From the NCBI GenBank assembly GCA_964657465.1, contig CAZZVD010000002.1, forward strand, positions 1 through 62,731: 62,731 bases of DNA, given 5' to 3'. This DNA comes from an uncultured Acetobacteraceae bacterium (lineage in GTDB: Bacteria; Acidobacteriota; Terriglobia; Terriglobales; Acidobacteriaceae). The translations under genes were made by a program, and so were the position numbers. Below the pieces are notes generated by a model. That model made no database searches. It saw only the letters and a program-made list of their open reading frames with translations, and had not been told where the DNA came from. Below are positions 1,544 to 30,172 of this stretch, in pieces (position 1 is the first letter of the stretch; every line of letters begins with the position of its first letter).

Positions 1544-4006
1544 GTGGCGATAGCAATGAAGCGAAAAACGACTGCTGTATTACGAACGACTTTGCCTTGG
1601 ATGGTTTTGCTTGCGGTGAGCGGGGTGCCCGCCCTGTCGCAAACAAGCCAGCCCGCCCATAAGCACGCGCCGGCACAACACCATGCAGGCACAACGACCA
1701 CAAAGAAGACGGCCGCGGTTCATGGCAAAGCCACGGGTTCCAAACCCCACGTGCGCCACGTAAAGACCCGGCGCAAGCCGCGCAGTGCACGCAGCATTGC
1801 GCGCAGCCGCAAGTTGCAACGGGCGTTCGTCGCCTCATCGCAGCTGCGGCCCATGGCGCAGGAGCTGACGACGATGCGCACACCGGCCGCTTACACCGGC
1901 GTAACCAACTACGCGCGCTCGCATACCGGCGAAGCGGCGTCTGCTGCTTACCTGGCCCTGGGCCACGCGTACCTGCAGGATCGCCGCTATGCGGAAGCAG
2001 CCAGCAGCTTTCAAAAAGCGAATGCCGCGGGAACCACCCTGGATGATTACGCTGATTTCCTGGCCGCTCAGTCCTTGATGGAAGCGGGCAAGCTCGCGGA
2101 TGCAGAGACGCTACTGAAAAACTTTGCCACGAAATATCCAGACAGCATTTTTGTCGATCGCATGCCGGTGATGATTGCAAACCTTTCTTTGCAGCAAAAT
2201 GATGCAACGACTGCGCTCAATGTGTTGCAGGCGCATGCAGCAGACGATGCGGCAAAACACGCAGACTTTCAATTGGCACTGGCCCGCGCCCAACAGATGA
2301 GTGGGAGCGTGGAAGAAGCTTCACGACTGTATCGCCATATTTTTCTCGGTTTCCCTCTCAGCAATGAAGGCGCGCAAGCCAAAGCGCAGCTGGCGATCCT
2401 GGGCGCGACGCCGCCGCTCACCGCCGCAGAACGCAGAGCGCTCGCGGACGCGCTCTATGCCGGGGGACGCTACAACGACGCGGGGGACGAATACCGCGCG
2501 CTGGCGAATGATTCTCAATCGGATGCAAAGGCACGGAGCGCGCTGCTGGTGGCAGCCGCTGCGTGTGACTTCAAGAGCAAGCGGCTCAGCAAGGAAGCAG
2601 TCGAGGCATTGCCTGATTCAGCCGATGAGAGTGGAGCCCGCCGCATGTACCTGGCCGTCGAGCTGGCGCGCAGCCACGACGACAGCGGTGCCCAACAATC
2701 CCTGGTCACCCAGATGGAACAGCGTTTCCCCTCCAGCCCGTGGTTGGCGGAAGCGCTCTACACCTCGGGCAACATGTACCTGCTGCGTAAGGATTATCCG
2801 CAGGCGATCATTTACTTCAACGAGCTGGCCACGCGGTTTCCCGATCATCATTACGCGCCCAGCAGCCACTGGAAAGCGGCGTGGTTGAACTATCGGCTGG
2901 GGAACTACTCCGCCGCGGCGGTGATGTTCGACCAGCAGATTGCGAACTATGCTGGCGGCAAAGAAATACCCGCTGCGCTCTACTGGCGCGGTAAGCTCTA
3001 CGCCGAACAGGAGCATCAGCCCGCGATGGCCGCGGCTTACTACCAAACGGTTTCGCGCACGTTTGAACATTACTACTACGCGCAGATGGCACGCGTGCGG
3101 TTAGCCGAGCTGGGCGTCGTGGCGCCGGCAGACGTAGCGATGTTGAACAACATCCACCGGGAAGAAATTCCTGCGCTGACGGACGATGTGCCGCAGGACG
3201 ATGAACATGTGATCAAGGCGCGGCTGTTGGCCAACGCGGGGTTGAACGAATTTATCCCGCTCGAGATTCAGGCCGCGGACGGCAGCGAGCAGTGGGGCGC
3301 TTTTGCCGAAGCCGATATCTACGCTTCGGATGGTGAGATTTACCGGGCGATGCGCGTGCTCAAGAAAGCGCTTCCGTTCTACGCTTCGGCGCCGATTGAG
3401 AGCATCCCGATGGGCTGCTGGAAAATTCTGTTCCCTCAACCATACTGGAGCGCGATTCAACAGCAAGCTGCCAGGAACGGGCTCGACCCATACATGGTGG
3501 CCTCACTGATTCGGCAGGAATCAGAGTTCAACCCCGGCGCGATCAGCGGCGCGAACGCGTGGGGCCTGATGCAGTTATTGCCTTCGGTGGGCCGCTCCCT
3601 GGCCAGGGAAGAAGGCATTCGCCACTTCAACGAAGGCGAACTGCTGAATCCTGAAACCAACATTCGCCTCGGTACGCGTTACCTGAAGCAGACGCTCGAC
3701 AAATTCTCCGGCGAGGCCGCCTATGCCTTTGCCGCTTACAACGCGGGCGATAGCCGCGTGACCGATTGGCAATCCATTGGGAAGTACCACGGACTGGACG
3801 AGTTTGTGGAATCGATTCCGTTTACTGAGACCCGCGACTACGTGCAGGCCATTCTGCGCAACGAAGCGATTTATCGTGAGTTGAACAAAGCCCGCCCGGC
3901 CGCGAAGGATATGCAGGCCAGCGAAGTGCGGGGGGGCGCTAGTGGCGCGGCTCCGGCCACTTCGAATACCATGGCGCAAGGCAAGCCAGTGGTCACGCAG
4001 CCGTAG
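1544..4006 (+). CDS. Soluble lytic murein transglycosylase (TPR-like N-terminal superhelix plus C-terminal SLT domain)
   Basis: SLT catalytic signature LIRQESEFNPGAISGANAWGLMQLLP and AYNAG. N-terminal signal peptide. An alternative start is at 1556 (MKRKTT). Confidence 0.85.
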   Translation: MAIAMKRKTTAVLRTTLPWMVLLAVSGVPALSQTSQPAHKHAPAQHHAGTTTTKKTAAVHGKATGSKPHVRHVKTRRKPRSARSIARSRKLQRAFVASSQLRPMAQELTTMRTPAAYTGVTNYARSHTGEAASAAYLALGHAYLQDRRYAEAASSFQKANAAGTTLDDYADFLAAQSLMEAGKLADAETLLKNFATKYPDSIFVDRMPVMIANLSLQQNDATTALNVLQAHAADDAAKHADFQLALARAQQMSGSVEEASRLYRHIFLGFPLSNEGAQAKAQLAILGATPPLTAAERRALADALYAGGRYNDAGDEYRALANDSQSDAKARSALLVAAAACDFKSKRLSKEAVEALPDSADESGARRMYLAVELARSHDDSGAQQSLVTQMEQRFPSSPWLAEALYTSGNMYLLRKDYPQAIIYFNELATRFPDHHYAPSSHWKAAWLNYRLGNYSAAAVMFDQQIANYAGGKEIPAALYWRGKLYAEQEHQPAMAAAYYQTVSRTFEHYYYAQMARVRLAELGVVAPADVAMLNNIHREEIPALTDDVPQDDEHVIKARLLANAGLNEFIPLEIQAADGSEQWGAFAEADIYASDGEIYRAMRVLKKALPFYASAPIESIPMGCWKILFPQPYWSAIQQQAARNGLDPYMVASLIRQESEFNPGAISGANAWGLMQLLPSVGRSLAREEGIRHFNEGELLNPETNIRLGTRYLKQTLDKFSGEAAYAFAAYNAGDSRVTDWQSIGKYHGLDEFVESIPFTETRDYVQAILRNEAIYRELNKARPAAKDMQASEVRGGASGAAPATSNTMAQGKPVVTQP

Positions 4007-4699
4007 TGTATGCATGTTTGGTGCGCCAGCGAAAGGAATTCATGCAGGCGGACGAAACGTGGATTGACGAAAGAGTGGCACGCCGAAAGAATGAGCCATG
4101 TTTGGTCGGCGGCCAGGAGAGTGCAGGGCATTTCATTTGACCGCGGCAGGTGACTCAGCCAATGGGTAAGTATTCGCAGGAGAGGTTCCCCCGGCTTGCG
4201 ATTGTGGGCTCGCACGGAAGACAGCAGGACGTAAGGCCGGCGGCAGATCGCTGGTGGGCCTCTGAGCGCACCTTTGCGTTGCGCTCCGGCGATGGGGAAA
4301 ATAGCCCCACTGGCTGCTACAGCGAGAGCAATCCTCGTATGGCGGTCATGCCAGACTCATCGCGTGGCTGGCTGGCGACCGCGCTCTTCACCCTTTGGCG
4401 CAAGGTAGCGAGCTATTTCGCCACGCCGGATTCACTGCGACGCCCCGCGGCCGTGCTCTCATTCCGGCGCCATGCGTTGCGCGGTCACCATGTTCGCCCG
4501 GAGTTTGCCGGCGAGACCTTCGCCAGCAAAAAGAACAATGGCAGTTTCCATTGGAGCCATGAGGAAGAATCGCCACGGGAGGGTGGCCGAGGATAAGCAA
4601 CGCACGATCGAGCAAGCGACAGTCAGAAAAGAAAGTGTTCCTGCACGCTACATAACAAGTGGTGGACCGCACTTCACAGGATCGCACAGGAGGAATGGC

Positions 4700-4963
4700 A
4701 TGTTGACGGATCTTGAGTTGCTTGGTGAGTGGATTCCAGAGCAAATGGAACCCGGAACCTTGTTTGTGCTGGAGAACACGGGAGCGATGGGCGAGGCGAA
4801 CAACCCATACGTCGCTGTGCTGGCGTGCCCGCAATGCGGCGCGCTGGGACTGATCACGAAAACCCAGTATGTTGGCATGGAATCGATGATCTGCGGTTCC
4901 GACAATTGTTCCTCGGAGTACTACCTGAACGACGAAGGCATCGAGTACCGCAAGCCGCACTAA
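4700..4963 (+). CDS. Small hypothetical protein with a Cys-rich zinc-ribbon-like motif
   Basis: AGGAGG lies 5 nt upstream of the ATG at 4700. Motif CPQCG...CGSDNC. The longer 4472 start has no RBS support. Confidence 0.45.
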   Translation: MLTDLELLGEWIPEQMEPGTLFVLENTGAMGEANNPYVAVLACPQCGALGLITKTQYVGMESMICGSDNCSSEYYLNDEGIEYRKPH

Positions 4964-5090
4964 GCGAAAGGTGCAGTGAGTTGAGCAACAGGTGCCCTGT
5001 TCTTCCAACGCAGTTGGTTGGGGAAGCAGGGCATTTTGCTGTTTGCGCAGAGGGCTTGCCAATTGCATGATGGGGAAGGAAGGGAAGTGT

Positions 5091-5906
5091 ATGCGCACGC
5101 CGCTTTATCAGGTCGATGCTTTCGCCAGCCGCCCGTTCCAGGGAAATCCTGCTGCGGTCATGCCGATGAAGCAATTTCCGGCGGATTCGACGATGCTGGC
5201 AATTGCGGAAGAGAACCATCTTTCGGAGACCGCCTTCCTGGTGCCTGAGGCTGGCGAGTATCGCCTGCGCTGGTTCACTCCCATGGTTGAGGTGCCCCTT
5301 TGCGGGCACGCCACGCTGGCGTCTGCCGCCGTGGTGATGGAGCGGCTCGAGCCTGGCCGCACGCGAGTTGTTTTCCATACCGCCAGTGGTGCGTTGACGG
5401 TGAGATCCAATGTGAGCAATGGGGGCGCCGGGTATGTGATGGATCTGCCGGCACGCCCGTCTCAACAGATCGAGACGCCCGTGGGTCTGGCTGCAGCGCT
5501 GGGGATTGTTCCCCGGGAGGTGTGGTCGAACGAATTCAATTACCTGGCTGTTCTGGAGGATGCCGATGCCGTGCGGCATCTTGCTCCGGACATGGCCGGA
5601 TTCGCCGAGGTAGACCGGCCCGGAGTGATCGTGAGTGCTGTTGGCGATGGGGGTTACGACATGGTGAGCCGCTACTTCGCGCCAAAGAAAGGGATACCCG
5701 AAGACCCGGTGACCGGCGCTGCGCACTGCATGCTGGCGCCTTATTGGGCGGCGCGGCTGGGGAAGGCGGAGCTTCGGGCATTTCAGGCGTCTCGACGCGG
5801 CGGCGAGATGCTCTGCCGCCTCCTGAACGATCGCGTGGAGTTGGAAGGTGGCTGCGTGTTTTACCTGGAGGGTGCGGTGGAGCTTGGGGCCAGCCACCTG
5901 GGGTAA
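5091..5906 (+). CDS. PhzF-family isomerase
   Basis: The N-terminus MRTPLYQVDAFASRPFQGNPAAV and overall length are typical of the PhzF family. The start was chosen at the internal ATG behind a GGAAGG RBS. Confidence 0.8.
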   Translation: MRTPLYQVDAFASRPFQGNPAAVMPMKQFPADSTMLAIAEENHLSETAFLVPEAGEYRLRWFTPMVEVPLCGHATLASAAVVMERLEPGRTRVVFHTASGALTVRSNVSNGGAGYVMDLPARPSQQIETPVGLAAALGIVPREVWSNEFNYLAVLEDADAVRHLAPDMAGFAEVDRPGVIVSAVGDGGYDMVSRYFAPKKGIPEDPVTGAAHCMLAPYWAARLGKAELRAFQASRRGGEMLCRLLNDRVELEGGCVFYLEGAVELGASHLG

Positions 5907-6001
5907 GCAGCCGTGAGCGTCGGGTTTTGAGTGCATTCCGGGGGCTATGCCATACTGAGGTGGCACGCCAGGATGCAGGCTCAAGGAGCCTTCATCCGCC
6001 C

Positions 6002-6090
6002 GCCCGGATGGCGAAATTGGCAGACGCAGCGGACTTAAAATCCGTAGCCCTTCGATGGGTGTGGGGGTTCAAGTCCCCCTCCGGGCACCA
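6002..6090 (+). tRNA. tRNA-Leu (anticodon UAA), class II with long variable arm, CCA encoded
   Basis: Acceptor stem gcccgga/tccgggc. Anticodon stem-loop gcgga-cttaaaa-tccgt. T-arm ggggg-ttcaagt-ccccc. 3' terminal acca. Confidence 0.9.
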
Positions 6091-6552
6091 TAGAAGACAG
6101 CTTGTAAGTCCTCAAAAATGAAAAGCTTATGAGATGCACAGTCTTTGCCGCTGGGCGGCATCTCGGTTCGAAAGACTATCTTCGGGTACAGAAACAGGTA
6201 CAGTCCGCATCATCTTTATTTCCATAGATTAAGAGAGGCGGGCTTTTCTGGACATCGGCTGGTTATGTTTGACTTGCCTTACTTACGCTAGATTACGGGG
6301 TGCGTAGCGGATTATAGGGAATCGCCTGTCGAGGAGTCATCTGAGCCTCGCTGGCAAGTTCAGAGACCCGGGCGCTTGCCTTGAAATAGTATCAGCGGTT
6401 ATTTCTAAATGCCTCATGCGGGTCGAGAATGTGAGAATCTTCAAAGTAAGCGTCCGAACTTCCCCTCTGGCGTAGGGCTGGGTTTCGAGCCTGAGCATAG
6501 CGTCATGGATCAACCAAAGGGAGTTGAACGTCTGTTCGTCAGCGCCTGGATT

Positions 6553-6708
6553 GTGGCGGCGGGCTGCGTCAGTTCGGCGAAGATGTTTCTGAGCAACTGG
6601 AGCGCATTCCGGCCACCTACAAGGTCATTCCAGCATGTGCGCCCGAAGTTTTGCCTGCGGGGCCTGCGAGCAAGTTGAAACAGAAGCTGTTAGCGCAGTG
6701 CCGATCTA
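6553..6708 (+). mobile_element. IS66-family transposase remnant (internal zinc-finger region, at least two frameshifts, both ends missing)
   Basis: Read across three frames it gives CGGGLRQFGEDVSEQLERIPATYKVI / QHVRPKF / ACGACEQVETEAVSAVPI. This matches the conserved IS66 Tnp block (...GEDVSE.LE..PA.FKVIRHVRPKYACR.CE...). Confidence 0.6.
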
Positions 6709-7277
6709 GAATTATTTGGGATCATCTGGGCTGTTTTCATCCGGAGGTTGTTCCCATATTGCTTCCGGGTCTTCGTCACTGGCACGAGCACCCGGTCTGG
6801 GGAAGTCCTTACGTCACTCGATTTGGAGTACGCCATGGCTTCCATCCTTCTTCTAGATGACGGCCTCAACCTCTGAGGTGTACGGTCGGCCTCTATTTTG
6901 TCCCGAGAGAGATGTGATAGACCTGACCTTCGAGATTTTTAAGATCTAAAGTCCACGGTGTATGTTGATGGTGGACGTAGTAAAAGGCTAGGGATGACGC
7001 AACGAGTATCGACAGGGCTAACCCAAGCGGCCCGATCAACGGTGAAGCCGTAATGCCCACGAATACGCTCCTCATCTGCCTTGTACCTTAACGGCGCGAG
7101 AGCATCGTACTGAGGGGCGTCGGGTGTAGAAGATAAACTCGCGAAGGGGGCTGCGGGTGCTGAAAGGGCACGCTTCAACTCTCGGCATCTAGCCAAGCGC
7201 ACCTGTTGCTTCCGCTGTGACCAAATGATCGCCATGCAAACAAATAGGATTTAGAGTATTCGAGGAGGTCGAAAAAT

Positions 7278-7838
7278 ATGGCATCAGTGCAGAGCGCAAT
7301 CGCTTCGATGGTGAAAAATATTGAGGAGAAAACAGGCAAGTCTCTTCCGAACTGGATTAATCTTTCTCGATCATCCGGCTTCAGTAAGCACGGCGAAATC
7401 GTCGCGTGGTTGAAATCAAAGCATCAATTAAGTCACGGCTATGCCAACTTCATCGCGAAGGAATCGCTGAAAGACAATCCAGGTTCAGAGACCCCGAGCA
7501 GCTTGGTGGATGCGCAGTACGCAGGCGGAAAAGCAACGCTGCGGCCGCTGTACGAGAAACTGATTGAAACCGCGAAATCCCTCGGGACAGATATCGAAAT
7601 CGCTCCGAAAAAGGCGAATGTAAGTGTCCGCCGCAACAAGCAGTTTGCCCTGCTTCAGCCGACGACACAGACGCGCATCGATGTTGGCTTGATACTGAAG
7701 GGGGTGAAACCGGCGGGCCGGCTCGAGGCTTCGGGTAGCTTCAATGCCATGTTTACCCACCGTCTTCGCGTCGAGACGATAAAAGACATCGATGTCGAGT
7801 TCAAACGTTGGTTGAAACAAGCCTACGACGAAGCATAG
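7278..7838 (+). CDS. DUF4287/DUF5655 domain protein
   Basis: GAGGAGG RBS. The N-terminal block KTGKSLPNWINL...HGEIVAWLKSKHQLSHGYANFI is typical of DUF4287. Confidence 0.7.
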   Translation: MASVQSAIASMVKNIEEKTGKSLPNWINLSRSSGFSKHGEIVAWLKSKHQLSHGYANFIAKESLKDNPGSETPSSLVDAQYAGGKATLRPLYEKLIETAKSLGTDIEIAPKKANVSVRRNKQFALLQPTTQTRIDVGLILKGVKPAGRLEASGSFNAMFTHRLRVETIKDIDVEFKRWLKQAYDEA

Positions 7839-7853
7839 ACTGACAACCGTCGC

Positions 7854-8417
7854 TCATGGTTGCTTTTGGACGGTGCCTGCGATGTAACTGGTAAAGCGTT
7901 GTGACGTCGCGGCTTGCGCAATCTGAAAATCGATGGCTAATCGACCGTTGGCCTGCTGGGCATAGGTGAAACGGAAGCGTGGAAAGCCGGCGGCGCCTTC
8001 CGTCGAAGTCATCACGACTTTAGCCGGAGATGAGCTGACCGACACGTTGAAGGTCAGAAAATGGCCCTCATTGTCAAATAGATCGGCGCGCTGCTTAAGT
8101 CCGTACAAATAGACGTACACGATGCTGCGGTAAGTAAATTCAGGCTTTCCCGCTTGCGCGGCGAACTGTTGCTGACTGGTAAACACAAGGACTTTGCCGT
8201 CCAGATCTTGTTTGAAGGTAAACTGTCCGGGACCCTCGCCGGCGAACCCTTTGCCGGTGCCCCCCCAGGTGCCCATGAGGAATTGCCAGTCCCGCCATTG
8301 ATACATGCGATCGCGCGCCGTACGGTAAGACAGATCCTGGGCGTCTACCTTTGGGTGCGGTGCCTGGGCCGGACATGCCATTGCAACCAGCAGTGCAGCA
8401 AGAGTAATCCGTTTCAT
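7854..8417 (-). CDS. Secreted hypothetical protein (paralog of 49963-50490)
   Basis: Signal peptide MKRITLAALLVAMACPAQA. Aligns along its length with the 49963-50490 product (GTWGG../GHWFA.., FDNEGH/FDNEGN, GRLAIDFQI/GKLAIKFEM). Starts 24 nt after the upstream gene's stop. Confidence 0.7.
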   Translation of the reverse strand: MKRITLAALLVAMACPAQAPHPKVDAQDLSYRTARDRMYQWRDWQFLMGTWGGTGKGFAGEGPGQFTFKQDLDGKVLVFTSQQQFAAQAGKPEFTYRSIVYVYLYGLKQRADLFDNEGHFLTFNVSVSSSPAKVVMTSTEGAAGFPRFRFTYAQQANGRLAIDFQIAQAATSQRFTSYIAGTVQKQP

Positions 8418-8441
8418 AGTTGCCTTTCATTCGCCAGCCAG

Positions 8442-9731
8442 TCACAGATCCAGGGTCGTAGAGTTGCGGTTGGGCAGTGTGCCTCGCTCATACGCTCGCT
8501 GGACGGTAGCGATCGATTCTGGTGTGTAGCGGCCGCTCAGTTTCGAACTCATGTCCGGCCGAGTGCGATACACGATTTCCTCAAGGTCCAGCAGGTGGCT
8601 GTGAAACGCAGCGGATAGGTCTTCAGCATGGCTGATCGCCGTTTCTCGGGCGATGTGTCGCGGGCCCAGGCTGGTGTGGGCGATCTCTGCAAACGACTGA
8701 AGTTGATGCTTTTTTAGCAGGGACGCGACCATTAGGTTTTTGCGGTCATTATGAATCTGTTGCGGTTCGTTAAAGGGGAAAAACATGTGGTAATTATGGC
8801 GATCACCGGTCACCGTGCGATAGGTGAGCATGGGAGTATCCGTCTCGCGTGCGGCGCGGACCAGATGCTTTTGGACAAAAAGCTCGAATTCCGGAACTGT
8901 CGGCATGTTCACATTCATCGATAGCTTTCGCCAGTAAGCACCGAAGCGAAAATAGCGCCTCTTGTTGAGAGGCGGCGCGTTGGTCACCTGGTCCCGATAG
9001 GCCAGGATTTTATCTGCCGCGGGCACGATGTATTTGTGGACGAAATCTTCAAACTCTGGCTCCACCCCCGGTTGCACGTAGAGATAAACAACGCGAAGAT
9101 ATCGTCCCAGATCATAGGGAACCTTCCCCGTCTCAGTCGCCGTCGCGCCGGTGTAGGACAACTCGGGCGCCACCAGGGCCACCGTTTTAGATTCCCCGAA
9201 CTGCATACCGTAGAGGTGTTTAAAGCGTTGCCATGATTCCGAAGCAGGGTCGAGTTCGTCGTCTCCCTTGTCCAGAGCCCACTGCACGCGCAGGGGCATG
9301 ATTTCGCTGTCGAGCTGATCGCCCAGGTTTTCAAAAGGAAACAACAGCGTGTACAAGTTGTCGCGCGCGGAGTCGCCGGTTTGATCTCTCAGGTAGCCTG
9401 CATTTGGGTTGTACTCCGACAGCTCGAGTTCGCAATCATCGAATGCATGATTGTGCAGATCGTAAGACATCTTGTGTGGGGCGGCGCCCGGAGGGCCAGG
9501 CTTGACCGCAGGAGGTTTGGGCTTTGTGAATCGTCTTTGCGCGGTAAGCCCAAACTGGGCTTGAACCGCTCCTCACGAGCCGCCGTCAGCCAGTTGCCGG
9601 AGCCGCGGCATAAGGTCCGAATTCGGACTGGGTACTGCCTTCTGTTTCTCAGGAACACTCTGACCCATTAGTCGGGAGGTTCCATATCCTAGAGCCGTCG
9701 TCGCAAGATGTAGAAAGGTTCGCCGTTTCAT
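8442..9731 (-). CDS. Candidate TAT-exported selenoprotein, uncharacterised family (in-frame UGA at 9573-9575 = codon 53); paralog of 36144-37430
   Basis: The ORF track splits it into 9573-9791 (MKRRTFLHL... twin-arginine signal) and 8442-9470. Both are in the same frame with no other stop between them. The sequence after the TGA (GAVQAQFGL) is conserved with the paralog. A SECIS-like hairpin lies 10 nt downstream. The gene lies directly downstream of selC-selA-selB. The conservative alternative is two separate ORFs. Confidence 0.6.
9541..9569 (-). promoter_or_regulatory. SECIS-like stem-loop downstream of the in-frame UGA
   Basis: Minus-strand reading: UGA-gga-GCGGT-tc-AAGCCCA-guu-UGGGCUU-ACCGC. 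The 17-nt upper hairpin (9546-9562) starts 10 nt after the UGA and has G-U in the apical loop. The lower stem has a 2-nt bulge. Confidence 0.55.
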
Positions 9732-9845
9732 AGTCACGACCTTTGTTGGTGAGCAAAACATAACATACAAATATCCGCAGCAACAAAACAAAGTTTATTA
9801 ATTACAATTTGCCCGCGCATCAACGAGCGGAGTCAATCGCTGTTG

Positions 9846-11774
9846 CTAAAGCACGAGACGCGAGTCACCATCGCGGCGAGTAAGTTTTGACTTGTCCAGG
9901 AACTCCAGCAAAGGGATGGCGTGCTTACGGGTTAACCCGGTCAGGTTTTTAAATTGCTGAACGTTGAGTGCCTTGCCTCTATAGGGCGCCAGCAGTGTGG
10001 CTAACCCTGAAACCGAGTCGTGGTGTAGGAACAGCGTGCCGTCTACCGGGATAAGAAGCCGCTCGCGCAACAGCGACGTCACCAGGGGCCTCACCGTCTG
10101 AGGGTCGAGACAGAGTTCTCCCAGAACTTCGGGAATGGAGCGCGCTGCCAGGGGAGATTTTTTGAAGGCAGCTAAAATGCTCAGTTGGATTCGCTTCTCC
10201 GCTACGCTTGCACCCACATGGTAGCCTGCCGGCGCGAGGAGGTCACCGGACACCCGCAACTTCTTATCCTGCATACCCTGAGCGACGATCGCGCCGAAAA
10301 TCCCGGACGGCAGCTTACTACGATTGAGCAACTCTGCCTTTCGCACCGCTCCTTCGTGCGGCCGAGCCTTAAGCAGCTGGGCCAGGTGTTGATCGAAGTG
10401 TTCGATGGCTAAGTGGTAGTGCGAGCTGGTTATCAGGCATTCTCCGCCGATGAGCAGGAGCCGCTGTTTTTGGGTGAGCGACGGCAACAATCGCTGCTTT
10501 ATCTCCTCCCCGGTGAGCAGCATCTCGCGGCAGGCCATGGACAGTTCGAGCCCCTGCATGCCTCGCCTTGCAGCGCGTTCGACTAACTCATCCGCGGGAT
10601 CCTTGATCTCTTGTAACTGCCGCAGCCACTGGTAGTTGTGCAGCTTCTTGATGCCAGGTAAGGGTTGGGCTTCAATCACGATTCCACCCCCAATGGTTCC
10701 AACGGGCGACGGCTGCCGCAGCACAAAGCGGTCGCCGCGGGCAACCAGTATGGGGCTCATCAATTTCAATCTGGCGAGGCCGCGGCTTCCTGCCGTCAGG
10801 GAAGTCTGGCTGTAGAGATTGACCCGCGCCACCACGTCTGTCGCGAAGACGTGCAAGTGCACCATGCTGCGATGTTTGAGCGTGGTGGCTCCCGGCGAGA
10901 GCGAAAGCTCAACATCGATAAGGTCCAGGGCTGCGATGGAATGCGTGGATACTAAGGTGTCGCCGCGCCTTACCTGATCGCGCTCGACCCCGGAGAGATT
11001 GAGGGCGACCCTGGTGCGCGAAGCTACATGCTGTACATGGCTGGAGTGGACCTGGATATTTCTTACTCGTACCTCTTTCCCCGACGGCTCCAGCACCAGC
11101 GATTGCCCCCTCGTCAGCTGGCCTGAAACCAGCGTCCCGGTAACGACGGTGCCGGCGCCTGTTATCGAGAAGGAGCGATCGATGGGCAGGCGCGCCGGTT
11201 GCCCTAGCCCTTGCGAAGGCAGGCCATGGGCCACTTTGCGCAGCGCAGCCTTAAGCTCGTTCAGACCAGTCCGCTGCAGGCTGCTTACGTGCAGTATGGG
11301 GTTGTGACGGCAGTCGAGGAATGTTCCGGACAAGAATTCCTCCACGTTCGTGTGCACCGTCTCTAGCCGATCCGGGCTTACGGCGTCGATCTTGGTGAGG
11401 ACGGTGATGCCGCGATCGATGCCAAGCAGGCTGCAGATCTCAAGATGTTCGACAGTTTGGGGGCGTATGCCATCGTCTGCAGCGATGACCAGAAGCACAC
11501 AGTTGATGCCGCCTGCGCCGGCCAACATATTGCGCACGAATAACTTGTGGCCGGGCACATCGACGAAGCTAACGCGTAGCGGAGAGCCATCGTCGAGTGC
11601 GTCATCCAGGAAGGCAAACCCCAGATCGATGGTGATGCCGCGCGCCTTCTCTTCCCGATGGGTATCCGTGTCGATTCCAGTAAGCGCCTTCACCAAGCTG
11701 GTTTTGCCGTGGTCGATGTGGCCGGCGGTACCAACAACCAGGTAGGTTGGATCGGTTTGCTGATGATTGATCAT
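9846..11774 (-). CDS. selB: Selenocysteine-specific translation elongation factor SelB
   Basis: N-terminal GTPase motifs (GTAGHIDHGKTSL, DVPGH, TKID) followed by a long winged-helix C-terminal extension. ATGA overlap with selA. Confidence 0.9.
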   Translation of the reverse strand: MINHQQTDPTYLVVGTAGHIDHGKTSLVKALTGIDTDTHREEKARGITIDLGFAFLDDALDDGSPLRVSFVDVPGHKLFVRNMLAGAGGINCVLLVIAADDGIRPQTVEHLEICSLLGIDRGITVLTKIDAVSPDRLETVHTNVEEFLSGTFLDCRHNPILHVSSLQRTGLNELKAALRKVAHGLPSQGLGQPARLPIDRSFSITGAGTVVTGTLVSGQLTRGQSLVLEPSGKEVRVRNIQVHSSHVQHVASRTRVALNLSGVERDQVRRGDTLVSTHSIAALDLIDVELSLSPGATTLKHRSMVHLHVFATDVVARVNLYSQTSLTAGSRGLARLKLMSPILVARGDRFVLRQPSPVGTIGGGIVIEAQPLPGIKKLHNYQWLRQLQEIKDPADELVERAARRGMQGLELSMACREMLLTGEEIKQRLLPSLTQKQRLLLIGGECLITSSHYHLAIEHFDQHLAQLLKARPHEGAVRKAELLNRSKLPSGIFGAIVAQGMQDKKLRVSGDLLAPAGYHVGASVAEKRIQLSILAAFKKSPLAARSIPEVLGELCLDPQTVRPLVTSLLRERLLIPVDGTLFLHHDSVSGLATLLAPYRGKALNVQQFKNLTGLTRKHAIPLLEFLDKSKLTRRDGDSRLVL

Positions 11775-13249
11775 GAAACTGACCGCGCGAGACCGATGGG
11801 ATGGCTGTTACCGATGACGGTTTTCAAATGGTTGATCAGAAGAGCATCGGACTCCGGCGTTATGGTCCGGAGGTCCAGAGCTACTGAGCCCTTGTAAGTC
11901 CTTGAGACTACTGGTGGGTCGAGTGACCGCAAAGCAGACGCGAGCGCGCCCGCGGTCCATGTCGGGTGATCCACGATCAGCAGAACGGTTTCGAGAGTTG
12001 CCCCCGGAGTCGTTCCTCCTCCGATCAGACTCGTGTCCGGTTGCAAATAGATCGTTGCGCCGGTCGTGCTCAGCGAGTCCCTGATATTTTCGGCCCGTGC
12101 CTGTAATCGCCCCAGCGTCTGTTGCAACATCCGGCTGATGGGAATATCGGGAGTTTGAAAGTCGAGGTACTCCTGCAGCGTACTGTCCAGCGCGGCGTAC
12201 ACCATTTTATCGACGCGGAACGTACGCAGCATGGGGTTTTGGCGGATACTCTCTATGGAACGGGACTGGCCGACAACGATTCCACACTGGGGACCGCCCA
12301 GCAACTTATCGCCGCTGCACACCACGATATGTACGCCGGCTTTGAGGCCTTTGATCAAGGTGTCTTCCCCAGAGATGCCATAGTCCTCCAGAACCAGCAG
12401 GCAGCCAGTGCCCTGATCTTCAAAGAGAATCTTGCCGTGTTCCTTGCACAGGGCGGCCAGGTCGGCTGAGGAAGGTGATTCCACGAAGCCGGTCATGGTG
12501 AAATTGGCGGGATGCACCCGCAAGAGCAAAGCGGTCTCCTCGGTGATCGCCTTGGCGTAGTCAGAGGCGCGCGTGCGATTGGTCGTCCCCACCTCGCGCA
12601 GGATCGCGCCGGACTTCGCGAGGATGTCAGGAATACGGAATCCGCCGCCAATTTCCAGAAGTTCCCCACGGGAGACGATGGTTTCCTTGCCGTCGGAAAG
12701 AGAATTCAGGACCAGGAAAGTAGCCGCCGCACAGTTGTTCACGACGATGGCGCGATAATCCTCCAGGAAATCCTGCAGCGGCAGACCGGCATGTTGTGCG
12801 AGCACGCGAAGCACCAACTGTTCAACATGGTCGTCGCGTTTGCCTCGCTCGCCAGTTGCCAGGTTGAATTCGAGATTGCAATAGCCGCCGGCAACGCGGG
12901 CAACATTTTCGAGCGCCTTTGCGCTTAAAGGAGCACGGCCCAGGTTGGTATGCAGCAAAACTCCTGTGGCATTCAGTACTGGCACCAGGGATGGACGGTT
13001 CGCGTCGCGGATGTGGTCGTGAATGGTCTGAGAGAGCCTGGATAACTCGGTTTCGAATGTATCCTCCTGTACTTCTCCGGAGGCGATTCGCTGGCGTAAC
13101 AATTGCAAACAGTCCCGGATGACGCGAATCACGAGATGCCGGGGGAAGTTCTTCAGCAGAGGTTTCAATTCCTCTGATCTTGCCAGTTCATCGATTGAGG
13201 GCAACCGGTGATAACTCATGAAGGCCGTTTTAGAGAGCGGGTCAATCAC
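11771..13249 (-). CDS. selA: L-seryl-tRNA(Sec) selenium transferase SelA
   Basis: N-terminal LPSIDELA motif, PLP-enzyme core and length fit SelA. The start is placed at GTG 13249 (GAGGA RBS 4 nt upstream); ATG 13219 is an alternative. The 13378 start in the ORF track would run through the tRNA-Sec gene. Confidence 0.85.
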   Translation of the reverse strand: MIDPLSKTAFMSYHRLPSIDELARSEELKPLLKNFPRHLVIRVIRDCLQLLRQRIASGEVQEDTFETELSRLSQTIHDHIRDANRPSLVPVLNATGVLLHTNLGRAPLSAKALENVARVAGGYCNLEFNLATGERGKRDDHVEQLVLRVLAQHAGLPLQDFLEDYRAIVVNNCAAATFLVLNSLSDGKETIVSRGELLEIGGGFRIPDILAKSGAILREVGTTNRTRASDYAKAITEETALLLRVHPANFTMTGFVESPSSADLAALCKEHGKILFEDQGTGCLLVLEDYGISGEDTLIKGLKAGVHIVVCSGDKLLGGPQCGIVVGQSRSIESIRQNPMLRTFRVDKMVYAALDSTLQEYLDFQTPDIPISRMLQQTLGRLQARAENIRDSLSTTGATIYLQPDTSLIGGGTTPGATLETVLLIVDHPTWTAGALASALRSLDPPVVSRTYKGSVALDLRTITPESDALLINHLKTVIGNSHPIGLARSVS

Positions 13250-13302
13250 GGCGTCCTCGATAATCAGGTTCTGGCATGTCGATGGTATAGAGGCAAGGGG
13301 CC

Positions 13303-13396
13303 TGGCGGAAGCGCGTGCGAGTCGAACACACCGTCGCCCGTAGGGACGACCACCGGTTTTGAAGACCGGGAGGATCACCGGAGCCTAAGCGCTTCC
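13303..13396 (-). tRNA. selC: tRNA-Sec (anticodon UCA)
   Basis: Minus strand: GGAAGCGC...CGGTCTTCAAAACCG...GTCGTCC-CTAC-GGGCGAC...GTGTG-TTCGACT-CGCAC-GCGCTTCC-G-CCA. It has an 8-bp acceptor stem, a 5-bp T stem, a 7-bp variable arm and a UCA anticodon. It closely parallels E. coli selC. Confidence 0.9.
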
Positions 13397-13468
13397 ATCT
13401 GTTGTCAGAAGTAATTAATACTATAGGTTTCGCTCCTCTCCGCAAAGAATGTGTCCTACGGCGCGAGC

Positions 13469-13918
13469 CTACACGGGATGGTGGGCGCCAGGGTGTGGAA
13501 CAATCTGGCAAAGCAGACGGGCTGCGCAATGAACATGACTTTCTACCTGAAACTCTCCGGAAATCTGGGCCGCGTAGTTGCGCAAGCCCAAAATCGTCGC
13601 TGTAATGGTTGCGCGATCGCCGGGCACGGGTGAGCCTGCGAAGCTGACCGATTCAATGGCTACCATGACCATCAAGCCGCCTTCTCTCGGAAGTGTCATG
13701 GTTGCCGATAACAGGACAGCACCTGCCTGGCCGATCGACTCCAGCATAAGCATTTCGGGTAATTCTCCTCCTCCACCGCAGTCACTAAAGGCCACATTCT
13801 TCAAAGCTGAAATACTCACACCGCGCTCTATCTGCAGGACCTTGTCTAGAAAAAGAAATGGATAGCGATGAGGGAGACTTTGAAGACTGATGGCGAAGCT
13901 GGAGGGAGAGCCGGCCAT
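13469..13918 (-). CDS. FabZ/FabA-like hotdog-fold protein (atypical active-site region)
   Basis: LPHRYPFLFLDKV and LESIGQAG motifs of 3-hydroxyacyl-ACP dehydratases are present. The GHFP histidine block is replaced by FSDCGGGGELP. The start was chosen to give FabZ-like length; longer starts at 13954 and 14098 are possible. Confidence 0.65.
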   Translation of the reverse strand: MAGSPSSFAISLQSLPHRYPFLFLDKVLQIERGVSISALKNVAFSDCGGGGELPEMLMLESIGQAGAVLLSATMTLPREGGLMVMVAIESVSFAGSPVPGDRATITATILGLRNYAAQISGEFQVESHVHCAARLLCQIVPHPGAHHPV

Positions 13919-14090
13919 GAAGTCATCGTCACTGTCTCCTGCGGTCGCAGTCATTAAATGCCCCAGACCGAGAGCATAGACCAGAAAAAGCGCACAGTGC
14001 TGGTCCGAAGTACAGTTGTCGCATAATCGCGTGTCCATTCTGCTAGAGCCTCGGGAGAACTCGGCGCCCTCAAAAGGTTGACTTCCACAA

Positions 14091-15533
14091 ATGCGCATTT
14101 TGCTTATACGGCCGCCTACCGAAACGTTTATTGTCTCGCCTCCGATCGGCCTGGGCTACCTGGCCACAGCACTTCGCTGTGCAGGACATCACCCGGAGAT
14201 ACTCGATTGCACGCTGACTTCGATGACGGCCAAGCAATTTGGCGAGTTTTTAGCGACGACGCCGCCGTTTCAGGTTTATGGCTTCCAGACTTATTCGTGT
14301 GAAGTAGATGTCGTGGAAAGCTGCCTGAAGGAGATAAAGCGGAGAGTTCCGAATGCGGTCACTGTGATTGGCGGCCCTCATCCTTCTGGTGGGCAGGAGT
14401 GCATGTTTGAGCTACCAGACGTGGATTTTGCGTTTCAGGGTGAGGCGGAGTTCGGCTTGCCGTTATTTTGCGACTTACTGGAAGCCGGTGACTCTCCAGA
14501 CCTGAGCCGGGTTCCTGGTCTTTTGTGGCGCGACGGCAATTGTGTTCGGGCCAATCCGAAGCACGCTGAAGCGGACCTTGATAAATTGGGGTTTCCCGCC
14601 TGGGATCTTATCGATCCGCGCAAATACCCAGTGGCTCCCCACGGAGGATTTGCTCGCTATTTTCCGGTTGCGCCTTTCATCATCTCGCGAGGCTGTCCGT
14701 ATTCTTGCACCTTCTGCGGAACGAAAAACGTGACCGGCATGAAAATGCGTTATCGCTCGATGGAGCACGTGATCGAGGAAATCCGCATGCTCCAGAACGC
14801 TTACGGGGTACGCGAATTGCATATTGAGGATGACAATTTCTCTGCTGTACGAAAAGAGATGAAAAAGTTTTGCAACAAGCTGATCGATGAGCAGGTGAAT
14901 ATTGCCTGGTATTGCACGAGCGGGCTGCGCCTCGACCTGATCGACGAGGAGCTGGCAATGCTGATGAAGAAGTCGGGTTGCTACACGGCAACGATTGCGA
15001 TCGAATCGGCGTCGCAGGCGACATTGAACCATATGAAAAAGAATCTCGACCTGGCCAAGGTTCCCGGCCAGGTCAGGTTATTGCGAAACGCCGGGCTCAC
15101 TCTGAATGCGCTTTTTATCCTCGGTTATCCTACCGAGACGCGTGGAGACATGGAGAAAACCATTCGCTATGCGATGAGCCTAGATGTGCAGCGCGCCCAG
15201 TTCTCGAACTTTCTCCCAATCCGCGGCACCGAGGCCTACGAATTTGTGAAGCAGCGGGGAGAAATCGAGGGTCTCGAACAGCGAAAGTTGCACACCGCGG
15301 ACAACCCGTACAGCCCACCCGGCATGACAACCTCAGAGCTGAAGTGGTTGCAGCGAAAAGGGTTTTTGTTTTTTCATCTGCGGCCAAGAATTCTTTGGGG
15401 TACGCTCACTAGCATCCGCTCCTTCTCGCAACTGTCATTCCTGCGGAAGAGATTGATCGAGTATTTGATTGGTCGAAAAAGAACGGGTGAACCCGGGATG
15501 CGAGAGAAAAACATCCTGGTCGAAGTCGTCTGA
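14091..15533 (+). CDS. B12-binding-domain radical SAM enzyme (class B type)
   Basis: N-terminal Rossmann-like B12-binding block (MRILLIRPP...PIGLGYLAT) and a CPYSCTFC (CX3CX2C) radical SAM cluster motif. Confidence 0.85.
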   Translation: MRILLIRPPTETFIVSPPIGLGYLATALRCAGHHPEILDCTLTSMTAKQFGEFLATTPPFQVYGFQTYSCEVDVVESCLKEIKRRVPNAVTVIGGPHPSGGQECMFELPDVDFAFQGEAEFGLPLFCDLLEAGDSPDLSRVPGLLWRDGNCVRANPKHAEADLDKLGFPAWDLIDPRKYPVAPHGGFARYFPVAPFIISRGCPYSCTFCGTKNVTGMKMRYRSMEHVIEEIRMLQNAYGVRELHIEDDNFSAVRKEMKKFCNKLIDEQVNIAWYCTSGLRLDLIDEELAMLMKKSGCYTATIAIESASQATLNHMKKNLDLAKVPGQVRLLRNAGLTLNALFILGYPTETRGDMEKTIRYAMSLDVQRAQFSNFLPIRGTEAYEFVKQRGEIEGLEQRKLHTADNPYSPPGMTTSELKWLQRKGFLFFHLRPRILWGTLTSIRSFSQLSFLRKRLIEYLIGRKRTGEPGMREKNILVEVV

Positions 15534-15578: not shown

Positions 15579-17531
15579 TTGATGGAGAGAGTGATGTCTA
15601 TCTTGAAGCGCAATTTGCTGTGTTTTTTTACCGTGATCCTTTGGTGCCTGCCTTTCCATGCTCAGATAGTCAGGCACCTGCAGTATGCGGGTCTTTCGGG
15701 CGCGCGCTCAGCAGCCGCGGGTGAAACGACGTTGCCGGCGCGGGAACCGGACGCCAAGCTGAGTGCTTACCTGCATCGTTCGCTGGCAAAAGCTCCCGCG
15801 TCTTCGTTTGTACCCGGCAATCGTGTGGTGGGACCTGCCGCAGAGGCGATGAGTGCCCGCACTGCGCCCGCAAAGGATCCCGTGGCCCTGACGGTAAAAG
15901 GCGGCGGCCACGAATTGCGCGAGAGCTTCGACGGCCTGAATTATTATCAGCAACGAAACGCGAATGATGGAAACCAGTATGCCATCGAGCCGACCGATCC
16001 TGGACTGTGTGCCGGGAATGGCTTCGTGCTGGAAACCGTGAACGAAATACTGCGCGTGTTCGATACGCATGGTAACCCGGTCGCGGCTCCCCTGGATGTC
16101 TACACCTTTTACGGGTACCCACCTGCCATCAACCGTACCACGGGCGCATTCGGGCCGTCGATCACGGACGAACATTGTTTTTACGATAAATCGAGCCGGC
16201 GGTGGTTTCATATTGCCCATACTCTCGACCGGGATCCGTTGACCAACGGTATACCAGGCACGAACCACCTTGATCTGGCCGTCAGCCGGAGCGATGATCC
16301 TACTGGTAGCTGGAGTATTTACAAACTGCCGGTTCAGGACGACGGGACGGATGGAACCCCCAACCACGCTTGCCAGTACGGCCCATGTTTTGGGGACTTT
16401 CCCCAGATAGCTGTCGACAAAAACGGCATTTACATAACCACCAATGAATTTGCATTCTTTGGCCCCGGCTTTCATGGATCGCAGATCTATGCACTTTCAA
16501 AAAAACAGTTGATTGACGGCGAGTCAGATCCAACAGTGGTGCAATTCGACACCGCTGATGCTGCTTATCTCTTCGAGGGGAACCCGGGCTACTCCGTGCA
16601 GCCTGCCCTGGACTTTGCCCAGGACTCTCCCGGTGGACGGCACGGCACCGAATTTCTGCTGAGCAACCTTGCCGGCTTTAACACCGTCGATGACCGGCTA
16701 CAGATCTGGAGCCTGAAAAATACGGAGTCGCTGGCGGGGCACTCCCCGCAGCTAAGCCTCAAGATGGGCACAGTTACGGTGAAGAGCTATTCATCTCCAC
16801 CCGACTCAGTGCAGAAGCCAGGACCTTTTCCGCTAGGACAATGTATCAACGACACGACCCTGCCAACGCCTTACGGCGCAGGATGCTGGCGGAATCTACT
16901 ATTGGGGGCGGAACCCGCGCATAATGAGACCCTCTACAACCTTCCCAGCAACGATGGACGTATGACCGAAGTAGTCATATCCAACGGCAAGCTGTGGGGT
17001 TCTTTCGATACCACGGTTACAATTGCCGGCCAGCCAGTCGCTGGACTGCAGTATTTCGCCCTTTGGCCCTGGGTCAACAGTTCGGGACCGGGGGCGAAGG
17101 TATTGTTGAGCTCGAATATCGGCGTCAAGGGGAACAACCTGACGTATCCTTCCATCGCTGCGACCCCCTGGGGCAGGGCAGTTATCGCATACACCCTGAT
17201 TGGCCCGGACTATTACCCCGCTTCGGCTTACACAATGCTTGATGTTTTTGGAGAATGCGATAAGACGGTGCGCGTTGCTGCAGCCGGCAAGGGCCCACAA
17301 GATGGATTTGAAGGCTACGCAGCTTTTGGCAGCTCGCCGCGATGGGGCACCTACAGCTCGGCGCTTCTGGATGGCGACTCGTTCTGGATTAACACTGAAT
17401 ACATAGGGCAGTCCTGCACCTTGGCGGAGTACGCTTCCGATCCGCCTGCCAGTTTGAGCTGCGGTAAATCTCGAGCAACCCTTGCAAACTGGGGCACAAG
17501 GATCAGTCGGATTTCCCCCAATGTCTGGTAG
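15579..17531 (+). CDS. Secreted hypothetical protein, 650 aa
   Basis: Signal peptide (LLCFFTVILWCLPFHAQ). Long uninterrupted ORF with genome-typical composition. I recognise no family. Confidence 0.7.
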   Translation: MMERVMSILKRNLLCFFTVILWCLPFHAQIVRHLQYAGLSGARSAAAGETTLPAREPDAKLSAYLHRSLAKAPASSFVPGNRVVGPAAEAMSARTAPAKDPVALTVKGGGHELRESFDGLNYYQQRNANDGNQYAIEPTDPGLCAGNGFVLETVNEILRVFDTHGNPVAAPLDVYTFYGYPPAINRTTGAFGPSITDEHCFYDKSSRRWFHIAHTLDRDPLTNGIPGTNHLDLAVSRSDDPTGSWSIYKLPVQDDGTDGTPNHACQYGPCFGDFPQIAVDKNGIYITTNEFAFFGPGFHGSQIYALSKKQLIDGESDPTVVQFDTADAAYLFEGNPGYSVQPALDFAQDSPGGRHGTEFLLSNLAGFNTVDDRLQIWSLKNTESLAGHSPQLSLKMGTVTVKSYSSPPDSVQKPGPFPLGQCINDTTLPTPYGAGCWRNLLLGAEPAHNETLYNLPSNDGRMTEVVISNGKLWGSFDTTVTIAGQPVAGLQYFALWPWVNSSGPGAKVLLSSNIGVKGNNLTYPSIAATPWGRAVIAYTLIGPDYYPASAYTMLDVFGECDKTVRVAAAGKGPQDGFEGYAAFGSSPRWGTYSSALLDGDSFWINTEYIGQSCTLAEYASDPPASLSCGKSRATLANWGTRISRISPNVW

Positions 17532-19171: not shown

Positions 19172-20242
19172 ATGGCAACCAGCGAGACAGTCCGATTGAC
19201 GCAACACACCAAAAGCGGAGGTTGCGCCAGTAAATTGGCGCCGGGCTCCTTGCAGGCCGTGTTAGCCAAGCTGCCACGACAGAAAGACGACATGATGTTA
19301 GTCGGTTTCGATACTTCCGACGACGCCGGCGTCTACCAGATAAGCCCCGATCTGGCGCTTGTCAACACTGTGGATTTCTTCACGCCACTTATCGACGATC
19401 CGTACACATTCGGTCAGGTCGCGGCGACCAACGCGTTGAGCGATGTCTACGCGATGGGTGGAAGACCGATTACCGCGCTGGCGGTGGTTTGCTTTCCAGA
19501 AGACGGAGACTTCGATGTGCTTGCTCAGATTATGAAGGGCGGCCTGGCCAAGATGGCGGAGGCGGGTTGTGCCGTGGTTGGCGGGCATACAGTCCGGGAC
19601 GCCGAGGTGAAGTTCGGCTATGCGATCACAGGTTTGATTGACCCGGCGCGCGTGTTTACCAACTCAGGAGCGAAGCCCGGCGACAAATTGATTCTCACCA
19701 AGCCCATAGGCACAGGGGTCATCACTACAGCGTTGAAGCAGAATAAGGCGCAGGAGTCCTGGGTAGCCGCAGCGATCTCACAGATGACGAAACTGAATAA
19801 GCAAGCCTCGGATCTGATTGTCAAGGAGTCATTCGACGTCCATGCAGTCACAGACGTTACGGGCTTCGGCTTGATGGGGCACGCGCGTGAACTGGCCCGG
19901 GGCAGCGAGGTGAGCCTGGAGATTCAGGTCGAAGCCATACCGTTACTCGAAGGAGCACTGGAGGCAGTGCATCTTGGAGCGGTGCCCGCGGGACTGCTTG
20001 CCAACCGGGAATTTGCAGAGTGCATTGTTTCCTGCGGCCCTGCATCCGACATTGCCGAAGATCTGAAGACCCTTCTGTATGATCCGCAGACCTCGGGCGG
20101 GTTGTTGATTTCGCTTAGCGCGCAAAAAGCCGACGAGTTGGTGACCCGGTTGCACGCTCTTGGTATCTTTGCCGCGATGATCGGCCGGGTGCTTGACCCG
20201 CAAAAGACCCGGACGAGGTCAGGCGAGATTCGCTTGGTGTAG
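19172..20242 (+). CDS. selD: Selenide, water dikinase (selenophosphate synthetase) SelD, Cys form
   Basis: N-terminal SGGCASKL loop (Cys/Lys equivalent to E. coli C17/K20) and an AIR-synthase-like fold. GAGGAA RBS. Starts 29 nt after the ligase gene. Confidence 0.9.
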   Translation: MATSETVRLTQHTKSGGCASKLAPGSLQAVLAKLPRQKDDMMLVGFDTSDDAGVYQISPDLALVNTVDFFTPLIDDPYTFGQVAATNALSDVYAMGGRPITALAVVCFPEDGDFDVLAQIMKGGLAKMAEAGCAVVGGHTVRDAEVKFGYAITGLIDPARVFTNSGAKPGDKLILTKPIGTGVITTALKQNKAQESWVAAAISQMTKLNKQASDLIVKESFDVHAVTDVTGFGLMGHARELARGSEVSLEIQVEAIPLLEGALEAVHLGAVPAGLLANREFAECIVSCGPASDIAEDLKTLLYDPQTSGGLLISLSAQKADELVTRLHALGIFAAMIGRVLDPQKTRTRSGEIRLV

Positions 20243-26664: not shown

Positions 26665-26680
26665 ATGCATCCTCGCTTTT

Positions 26681-30170: not shown

Positions 30171-30172
30171 GG

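Follow-up and report, generated by a model that had tools for sequence, protein, structure and literature searches.

FdnG and FdoG, the periplasmic formate dehydrogenase subunits, are selenoproteins exported by the twin-arginine translocation (Tat) pathway. The Tat signal is typical of proteins that are exported after folding or cofactor loading, and in the molybdenum and tungsten enzymes of the FdnG/FdoG superfamily the metal ligand can be selenocysteine (Sec), Cys, Ser or Asp. In Proteobacteria, selA-selB-selC operons flanked by the client gene fdhA have been described, and the Sec trait may move with its client (Zhang et al., 2006; PMC1794560). The minimal stem-loop bound by SelB in Escherichia coli is 17 nucleotides (nt) long (PMC11431864). 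Here, we analysed a 62,731-nt stretch of contig CAZZVD010000002.1 (assembly GCA_964657465.1) from an uncultured member of the Acidobacteriota, hereafter called the window, in which selC, selA and selB lie on the minus strand beside a gene that carries an in-frame UGA. We consider it likely that this is a canonical selC-selA-selB cluster, with selD on the opposite strand at a distance of 5.8 kb, that stands immediately upstream of, and is probably co-transcribed with, the client gene of a previously unannotated acidobacterial selenoprotein family.

The sel genes and the adjacent UGA-containing gene

The tRNA-Sec gene selC (13303-13396, minus strand; anticodon UCA, CCA end encoded) was found by ARAGORN and matched Rfam RF01852 over its full length (71.7 bits against a gathering score of 47, E = 1.5e-13). 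On the same strand follow selA (11771-13219, stop TGA 11771-11773), encoding L-seryl-tRNA(Sec) selenium transferase (Pfam SelA, E = 1.4e-115, and Se-cys_synth_N; TIGR00474, 495.8 bits against a cutoff of 267.9), and selB (9846-11774), encoding the Sec-specific elongation factor (Pfam GTP_EFTU, GTP_EFTU_D2 and Beta-barrel_SelB, with the C-terminal winged helix SelB-wing_3 at E = 2.6e-15; TIGR00475, 334 bits against a cutoff of 242). A selenophosphate synthetase of the Cys type (SGGCASK) is encoded by selD (19172-20242, plus strand; Pfam AIRS/AIRS_C; TIGR00476, 379 bits against a cutoff of 125), which begins 30 nt 3' of a gene of the benzoate/acyl-CoA-ligase family (17727-19142), an acyl/aryl-CoA ligase. 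SelA, SelB, SelD and the tRNA-Sec, all above curated cutoffs, make up a bacterial selenocysteine-decoding system, and their four genes lie within approximately 10.4 kb in two orientations. An earlier note on this DNA had placed the full decoding machinery in one unit with its client; selD, being on the other strand, falls outside that unit.

Downstream of selB are the candidate selenoprotein gene (8442-9731, minus strand, 429 codons) and a gene for a secreted protein of 187 amino acids (7854-8417, minus strand). The earlier description of five minus-strand genes with short gaps was confirmed at every coordinate. The distance from the 3' end of the tRNA-Sec at 13303 to selA is 83 nt from the start ATG 13219, or 53 nt if the alternative GTG 13249 is used, which has the better upstream AGGA. 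The TGA of selA and the ATG of selB overlap by 4 nt (ATGA, 11771-11774), the stop of selB at 9846 is separated by 114 nt from the selenoprotein ATG at 9731, and only 24 nt lie between the selenoprotein stop at 8442 and the ATG of the last gene at 8417.

From ATG 9731 to its stop at 8442, the candidate gene is a single frame whose sole internal stop is TGA 9573-9575, at codon 53. Its predicted product has a twin-arginine (RR) signal (MKRRTFLHL), a linker, the segment RLRQLADGGS-U-GAVQAQFGL, in which U is the putative Sec, and an alpha/beta domain of about 375 residues. We fetched 27 homologous loci (L001-L027) and read the sequence upstream of the called starts. In approximately 20 distinct loci, at 43-65% identity, exactly one in-frame TGA was found, always at the same place six codons ahead of a Q/R-F/Y-G motif; upstream of it the frame stays open as far as an N-terminus that reads M(K/N)RRxF(I/L). 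The twin arginine itself is present in 19 of the 20 N-termini inspected (e.g. KRRTFLH, KRRLFLK, KRRTFIQ and NRRRFLE), with RK in L003. Two subfamilies were recognised: subfamily A, to which the gene at 8442-9731 belongs, has the signature R(L/I)QQ(L/V)A(D/E)GGS-U-GA(I/V/L)Q(S/A)(R/Q)FG, and in subfamily B a T/P-rich linker precedes U-xxxxAQFGLxGxRDF.

A hairpin resembling a selenocysteine insertion sequence (SECIS) lies just downstream of the UGA (9541-9569, minus strand; predicted fold -22.9 kcal/mol, z = -3.1). Its upper stem-loop (9546-9562), AAGCCCA-GUU-UGGGCUU, has 7 bp and a 3-nt loop, spans 17 nt and starts 10 nt after the UGA, a spacing that agrees with that in E. coli work. The 17-nt hairpin was found in all 18 aligned sequences. 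The pair 25-37 is GC in 10, UA in 7 and UG in 1, and the closing pair 29-33 is AU in 13 and GC in 5, with no unpaired cell in either and with 8 and 5 double changes, respectively. The covariation score was 0.291, compared to 0.154 in shuffles (0 of 500 reached the observed value) and at most 0.09 in slid registers. Because the compensatory changes shift the encoded residues jointly (AQFGL versus SRFGI, that is, A..L versus S..I), they point to a constraint on the RNA. The G and the U of the apical loop are invariant (loop GUU, GUC or GUA), with the G about 20 nt from the UGA. Furthermore, among the long in-frame TGAs of the window, the two copies of this family have by far the most stable downstream folds. 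A search of Rfam at E <= 1 over positions 5500-15000 returned only two tRNAs and no curated SECIS family. The hairpin shares with the fdhF-type SECIS of E. coli its place in the coding region just 3' of the UGA, the 17-nt upper stem-loop and the apical-loop G; it differs in that fdhF has a GGUC-type loop and a bulged U, whereas the hairpin in the window has a 3-nt loop and an unconserved lower stem.

That TGA 9573-9575 is instead a genuine stop, ending a 52-residue peptide and leaving a cytoplasmic protein of 342 residues to start at ATG 9470, or that the gene is a pseudogene, we find hardly credible. Gene callers do annotate the 342-residue form (P0001), and an ATG is present at 9470; however, this ATG is not conserved beyond the closest clade, and the called starts vary widely. 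Conservation of the protein extends to either side of the TGA, with the RR signal and, in subfamily A, RLQQLADGGS upstream and a conserved strand downstream, so that a genuine stop or a pseudogene is practically excluded. The conservation through the TGA to the RR signal across the loci, the covarying hairpin and the presence of selABCD alongside speak against it as well. Finally, two homologs without Sec (L002, 8001-9251, and L021, 856-2106) are continuous open reading frames (ORFs) with the same N-terminal architecture; they have Asp at the exact Sec position (PPAG-D-xxxxxQFG) and retain the Tat signal and the conserved histidines. Taken together, the conserved TGA, the flanking conservation, the RR signal and the covarying hairpin strongly support the selenoprotein call made in the earlier note, through comparison of homologs and not through operon adjacency. 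We infer from these sequence features that Sec is inserted at UGA 9573-9575 and that the selenoprotein is exported by the Tat pathway.

A selenoprotein family from Acidobacteriota

The window holds two client genes of this family, at 8442-9731 and 36144-37430. The second (plus strand, subfamily B, 51% identity to the first) was identified as a true paralog by tblastn against the window; it has the N-terminus MKRRLFLK, a T/P-rich linker and GGS-U-SANSAQFGL, with its UGA at 36339-36341 and the same hairpin at 36352-36368. Its ATG overlaps the stop of a 342-residue gene (35119-36147) that has no Pfam match and is the conserved partner of subfamily B genes, which have a protein of 270-340 residues encoded upstream. 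A B12-radical-SAM gene (33550-35106) lies upstream of this partner gene, and the second copy is followed by a GyrI-like gene (37450-37971) and by one that is LolA-like plus FGE-sulfatase/EgtB-like (37964-39472).

A database search for the family returned 42 clusters, all unnamed or 'hypothetical protein', with the acidobacterium Candidatus Sulfotelmatobacter as the sole named source. Nearly all 42 are called as proteins of 280-375 residues that start after the TGA. Since the public copies are annotated from after the UGA, the signal peptide and the selenocysteine are invisible in databases. An exhaustive hidden Markov model (HMM) search of 1.84 billion representatives returned only 12 proteins at E < 0.001, and the only GTDB species-representative genome with the family is an Acidobacteriota metagenome-assembled genome, which has two copies approximately 15 kb apart. 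The histidines of the motifs HNY and FHSH are invariant within the selenoprotein family; the distant relatives P0043-P0048 have neither these histidines nor the Sec motif, and P0047 and P0048 carry ordinary signal peptides.

Scans of both copies, with U replaced by C, against Pfam and NCBIfam (June 2026) recovered no family, and a PDB profile search with the selenoprotein gave 0 matches. The recent selenoproteome reviews and tools that were consulted mention no such family, either in their tables or in their text, and the literature on acidobacterial, Tat or Sec/Asp selenoprotein families yielded nothing matching. The client thus appears to represent a new, previously unannotated selenoprotein family from Acidobacteriota.

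Transcription and linkage of the sel genes to the client

The layout of the locus bears on whether the five genes form one operon. A scan for terminators and promoters over 7600-13700, which was consensus-based, crude and limited to the sigma-70 type, with acidobacterial promoters being poorly defined, found no terminator-like site in the intergenic spacers and no sigma-70-like site on the minus strand; its totals did not exceed those of shuffled sequences. Upstream of selC by 72 nt and on the same strand is a gene for a FabZ-like hot-dog protein (13469-13954, longest ORF to 14098; NCBIfam FabZ, E = 3.4e-21, below cutoff). Translation probably starts at Met 13954 or Met 13918, because the longest ORF overlaps the start of a divergent B12-radical-SAM gene by 8 nt. 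As no such sites were found in this crude scan, the sequence is compatible with a single transcript, possibly including the FabZ-like gene, and co-transcription of selC, selA, selB, the selenoprotein gene and the partner gene is plausible.

The genes may instead be adjacent but separate units, with selC under its own promoter, selA and selB as an operon, and a promoter in the 114-nt spacer driving the selenoprotein gene and its partner, which must form an independent operon in relatives that lack upstream sel genes. The adjacency would then reflect rearrangement or loose functional clustering. We regard this arrangement as possible, though somewhat improbable. It is consistent with the occurrence of the pair without an upstream sel gene in L001, L003, L004, L006-L012 and L024-L027, and with insertion sequence (IS) remnants found between selB and the pair on the contig of one relative, P0003. 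The spacer upstream of the pair (9732-9845) is AT-rich, hexamers resembling TATAGT/TAGTAT were read by eye approximately 20-25 nt upstream of the 5' end of the tRNA-Sec, and tRNA genes are commonly processed or transcribed alone. The scan, in contrast, revealed neither a terminator-like nor a sigma-70-like site in that spacer, nor any such promoter on the minus strand elsewhere in the region covered. The 4-nt overlap of selA and selB and the final gap of 24 nt also argue against separate units.

In several loci, a conserved tripartite DNA element, CTGTnC-n7-CTGnnC-n3-4-GTACAGTTG, precedes subfamily A genes by 57-176 nt. In the form CTGTnC-n6-7-CTGnnC-n3-4-GTACAGTT(G), it occurs in the window at 14010 (plus strand), 31796 (plus strand) and 54010 (minus strand), and it also stands upstream of several cluster operons in L003, L004, L005, L006, L008, L009, L011, L019 and L022. 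The window contains two occurrences of GTACAGTTR, where 0.29 would be expected. The element may be a site for the GerE/LuxR regulator of the cluster or a special promoter. We considered whether it had been displaced upstream of the sel genes, and rejected this: the copy at 14010 faces the B12-radical-SAM gene, and none is present in the 114-nt spacer. The element is also absent from the closest clade (L024-L027) and is therefore uninformative on co-transcription.

The earlier note had asked whether the synteny of the sel genes with the client recurs, and it largely does not. No SelA, SelB or SelD match was obtained by tblastn in L001-L027, and an ARAGORN scan of 14 of these loci, namely 10 of the longer ones and L024-L027, was negative for tRNA-Sec. 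The exception is a 22-kb contig (JGI 3300047160) carrying the 62%-identical relative P0003, on which selB lies approximately 3 kb upstream of the selenoprotein gene. The order on this contig is B12-radical-SAM, SelB, IS remnants, selenoprotein, partner and DUF5655, which mirrors the window. At that locus (3051-9624), SelB and the selenoprotein-partner pair are kept apart by integrase/transposase (rve_3) and ABC fragments that span about 3 kb, and selA does not fit between the radical-SAM gene and selB.

Apart from the sel genes, the neighbourhood is conserved. The recurrent neighbours are the partner gene, a 67-68%-identical B12-radical-SAM gene, a cupin, ketosynthases and an acyl carrier protein (ACP), MacB-type exporters, a GerE/LuxR regulator, and GyrI-like and LolA-FGE-sulfatase proteins; the window carries the same conserved cluster as the relatives. 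Three tandem ketosynthase genes and a gene for 679 residues without a family match occupy 25618-31336 on the minus strand, and in L001, L003, L005 and L008 homologs of these genes adjoin the selenoprotein family, accompanied by genes of the DUF1702 and FG-GAP/UnbV_ASPIC types. The B12-radical-SAM gene beside the sel genes (14091-15533, plus strand) ends at TGA 15531, which is in frame with a 650-residue ORF (15579-17531) without a family match. This is probably a normal stop, since the fold after it is weak (-8.2 kcal/mol) and the homolog in L001 ends at the same place without an extension.

The sel linkage is thus restricted to a single small clade, and it has the look of an insertion that parted the radical-SAM gene from the selenoprotein gene. 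We nevertheless think it unlikely that selC-selA-selB, with the FabZ-like gene, is a cassette recently acquired by or relocated to this site in a pre-existing cluster, which would thereby have gained its own Sec machinery. A radical-SAM homolog of 67-68% identity is found a few kb or less from the selenoprotein gene in L001, L004 and L008. In two of these loci, L001 and L008, it is the immediate upstream neighbour in divergent orientation, and in L001 a cupin gene alone separates the two. SelA and SelB of the window share 46-49% identity with other acidobacterial SelA and SelB, and these share 57-59% with each other; SelD is 63-69% identical (two comparison genomes). The greater divergence of SelA and SelB than of SelD would fit a cassette, as would the absence of any SelB above 47% identity to that of the window among 5.8 billion database proteins, the IS remnants adjoining selB on the P0003 contig and the usual acidobacterial order, selC / selD-selA-selB. 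Transfer of selABC with a client gene has also been described (PMC1794560). However, the best SelB matches are still from Acidobacteriota, the divergence argument draws on two comparison genomes, there is no compositional break (G+C content 0.52-0.60 throughout the window), and neither repeats nor mobile-element genes were noted on either side of the sel genes in the window.

Several observations weigh against the reading that a canonical sel cluster serves, and is probably co-transcribed with, an adjacent new selenoprotein gene. As the sel synteny is absent from approximately 12 informative loci, the selenoprotein-partner pair can act as its own unit, and a promoter may have escaped recognition in the AT-rich spacer of 114 nt. 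Conservation of the hairpin's lower stem is poor and its support weak, and the residue that replaces Sec in the two Sec-less members is Asp. Homologs with Cys at the Sec position, the usual hallmark of a selenoprotein family, were found neither in the 42 clusters and 27 loci nor in the HMM search; in the absence of a Cys form, pipelines built on the pairing of Sec and Cys homologs would overlook the family. Finally, no function could be assigned: Pfam, NCBIfam and PDB searches gave no sequence match, and Foldseek matches were at E >= 7.6e-3 only.

In the mechanism we propose, the ribosome would reach UGA 9573-9575, SelB-GTP carrying Sec-tRNA(Sec) would bind the 17-nt hairpin 10 nt further on, and Sec delivered by SelB would be inserted at codon 53. 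Given its twin-arginine signal, the product is probably exported folded to the periplasm, where the first beta-strand of the approximately 375-residue alpha/beta domain would have Sec at its N-terminal edge. The gene 24 nt downstream would yield a secreted beta-barrel, the conserved partner of the selenoprotein family. The sel linkage is lineage-specific, and most relatives keep the pair in a conserved cluster of B12-radical-SAM, ketosynthase/ACP, MacB exporter and LuxR-type regulator genes without sel genes.

Partner protein, possible role and comparison with known systems

The 187-residue protein had been described in the earlier note as a secreted paralog of the selenoprotein. This relationship does not hold: tblastn of each protein against the window gave no cross-similarity even at E <= 10, and the predicted folds differ, the selenoprotein being alpha/beta and the 187-residue protein an all-beta barrel. 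Its N-terminal signal-like sequence is MKRITLAALLVAMACPAQA, and homologs, frequently as a tandem pair, lie directly 3' of subfamily A genes. It scored 17.3 bits with Pfam THAP4_heme-bd (PF08768; E = 0.0054), below the gathering threshold of 25. The best Foldseek match of its model, which is of low confidence (pLDDT, predicted local distance difference test, 62.6), was nitrobindin, at a target-normalised TM (template modelling) score of 0.59; further matches were Rv2717c and calycins of the fatty-acid-binding protein (FABP) type, and nitrobindin and Rv2717c together span target-normalised TM scores of 0.49-0.59. Like nitrobindin/THAP4 and FABP-like calycins, the modelled protein has an N-terminal helix followed by approximately 10 antiparallel strands; it differs from nitrobindin/THAP4 in being secreted and in its Pfam score below cutoff. 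The resemblance in fold is suggestive, and the protein is probably a secreted small-ligand-binding beta-barrel of the nitrobindin/calycin type.

The AlphaFold model of the part of the selenoprotein after the UGA, a confident one (pLDDT 86.4, predicted TM score 0.85), consists of repeated beta-alpha-beta units, and its first beta-strand starts right after Sec. The best Foldseek matches were tandem ABM/Dabb-like structures (2pgc, 5f9p, 3f44 and 9lmn; E = 7.6e-3, query TM 0.19, target TM 0.32). Filing the protein with ABM/Dabb, VAO or sulfur oxygenase reductase was rejected, as the Foldseek results against the PDB were insignificant and there was no Pfam or PDB sequence match. The alternation of Sec with Asp only, the Tat signal and the family-specific histidines suggest a periplasmic metal- or cofactor-dependent enzyme. 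We speculate that it is a periplasmic redox or metal-dependent enzyme in which Sec/Asp and the conserved histidines form the active or metal site; also speculative is the idea that it and the partner barrel jointly act on a hydrophobic product made by the surrounding cluster. A bolder proposal is that Sec, as a metal or cofactor ligand or a catalytic residue that alternates with Asp only, cannot be replaced by Cys in a new periplasmic, Tat-exported enzyme acting on the product of the conserved acidobacterial gene cluster, which is lipid/polyketide-like. On this account, the cluster captured its own divergent selC-selA-selB, with selD nearby, as an accessory function. We judge this proposal distinctly improbable; if it is true, Sec decoding belongs here to a specialised-metabolism cluster and is not a housekeeping trait tied to formate dehydrogenase.

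The family adds a predicted Tat-exported selenoprotein other than formate dehydrogenase, and it places selenium use in soil and peat Acidobacteriota beside a cluster whose radical-SAM, ketosynthase, exporter and regulator genes are conserved. The adjacency of the sel genes and the client could let trait and client be inherited or transferred jointly. The Sec/Asp alternation and the family-specific histidines provide a testable hypothesis of a metal or catalytic site, and interest would be higher should it turn out to be a selenium-dependent active site of a new kind.

Two other acidobacterial loci, from Silvibacterium bohemicum (L028) and a metagenome contig (L029), were compared with the window. 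They come from the same phylum and have the same sel genes, in the layout selC / selD-selA-selB. They differ from the window in that selD heads the operon; in L028 selC is separate and on the opposite strand, and no tRNA-Sec was found in the L029 stretch. In L029 (9967-11296), selD-selA-selB is followed by two genes with in-frame TGAs, one CMD/AhpD-like (NRCPYU) and one deiodinase-like (GSYTUPPF), both of which were split into fragments by gene callers. These clients belong to known families of the thiol-oxidoreductase type with UxxC/CxxU-like motifs, whereas the client in the window has neither a redox motif nor a Cys homolog. Acidobacterial sel neighbourhoods are thus a good hunting ground for unrecognised selenoprotein genes, with L029 as a second example.

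Compared with FdnG and FdoG, the client likewise combines a twin-arginine signal with a UGA that would encode Sec, and its Sec/Asp alternation resembles the ligand variation of their superfamily. However, those are molybdopterin enzymes of about 1000 residues, whereas the client has a domain of approximately 375 residues built of tandem alpha/beta units, without sequence or fold similarity to them. The locus resembles the proteobacterial sel-fdhA operons in that the decoding genes lie on one strand with a selenoprotein gene directly adjacent; it differs in its order selC-selA-selB, in its unannotated client, in having selD nearby on the other strand, and in a synteny that is not conserved among relatives of the client. 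The placement of sel genes beside their client is therefore an arrangement of a known type, and the client family is the new part.

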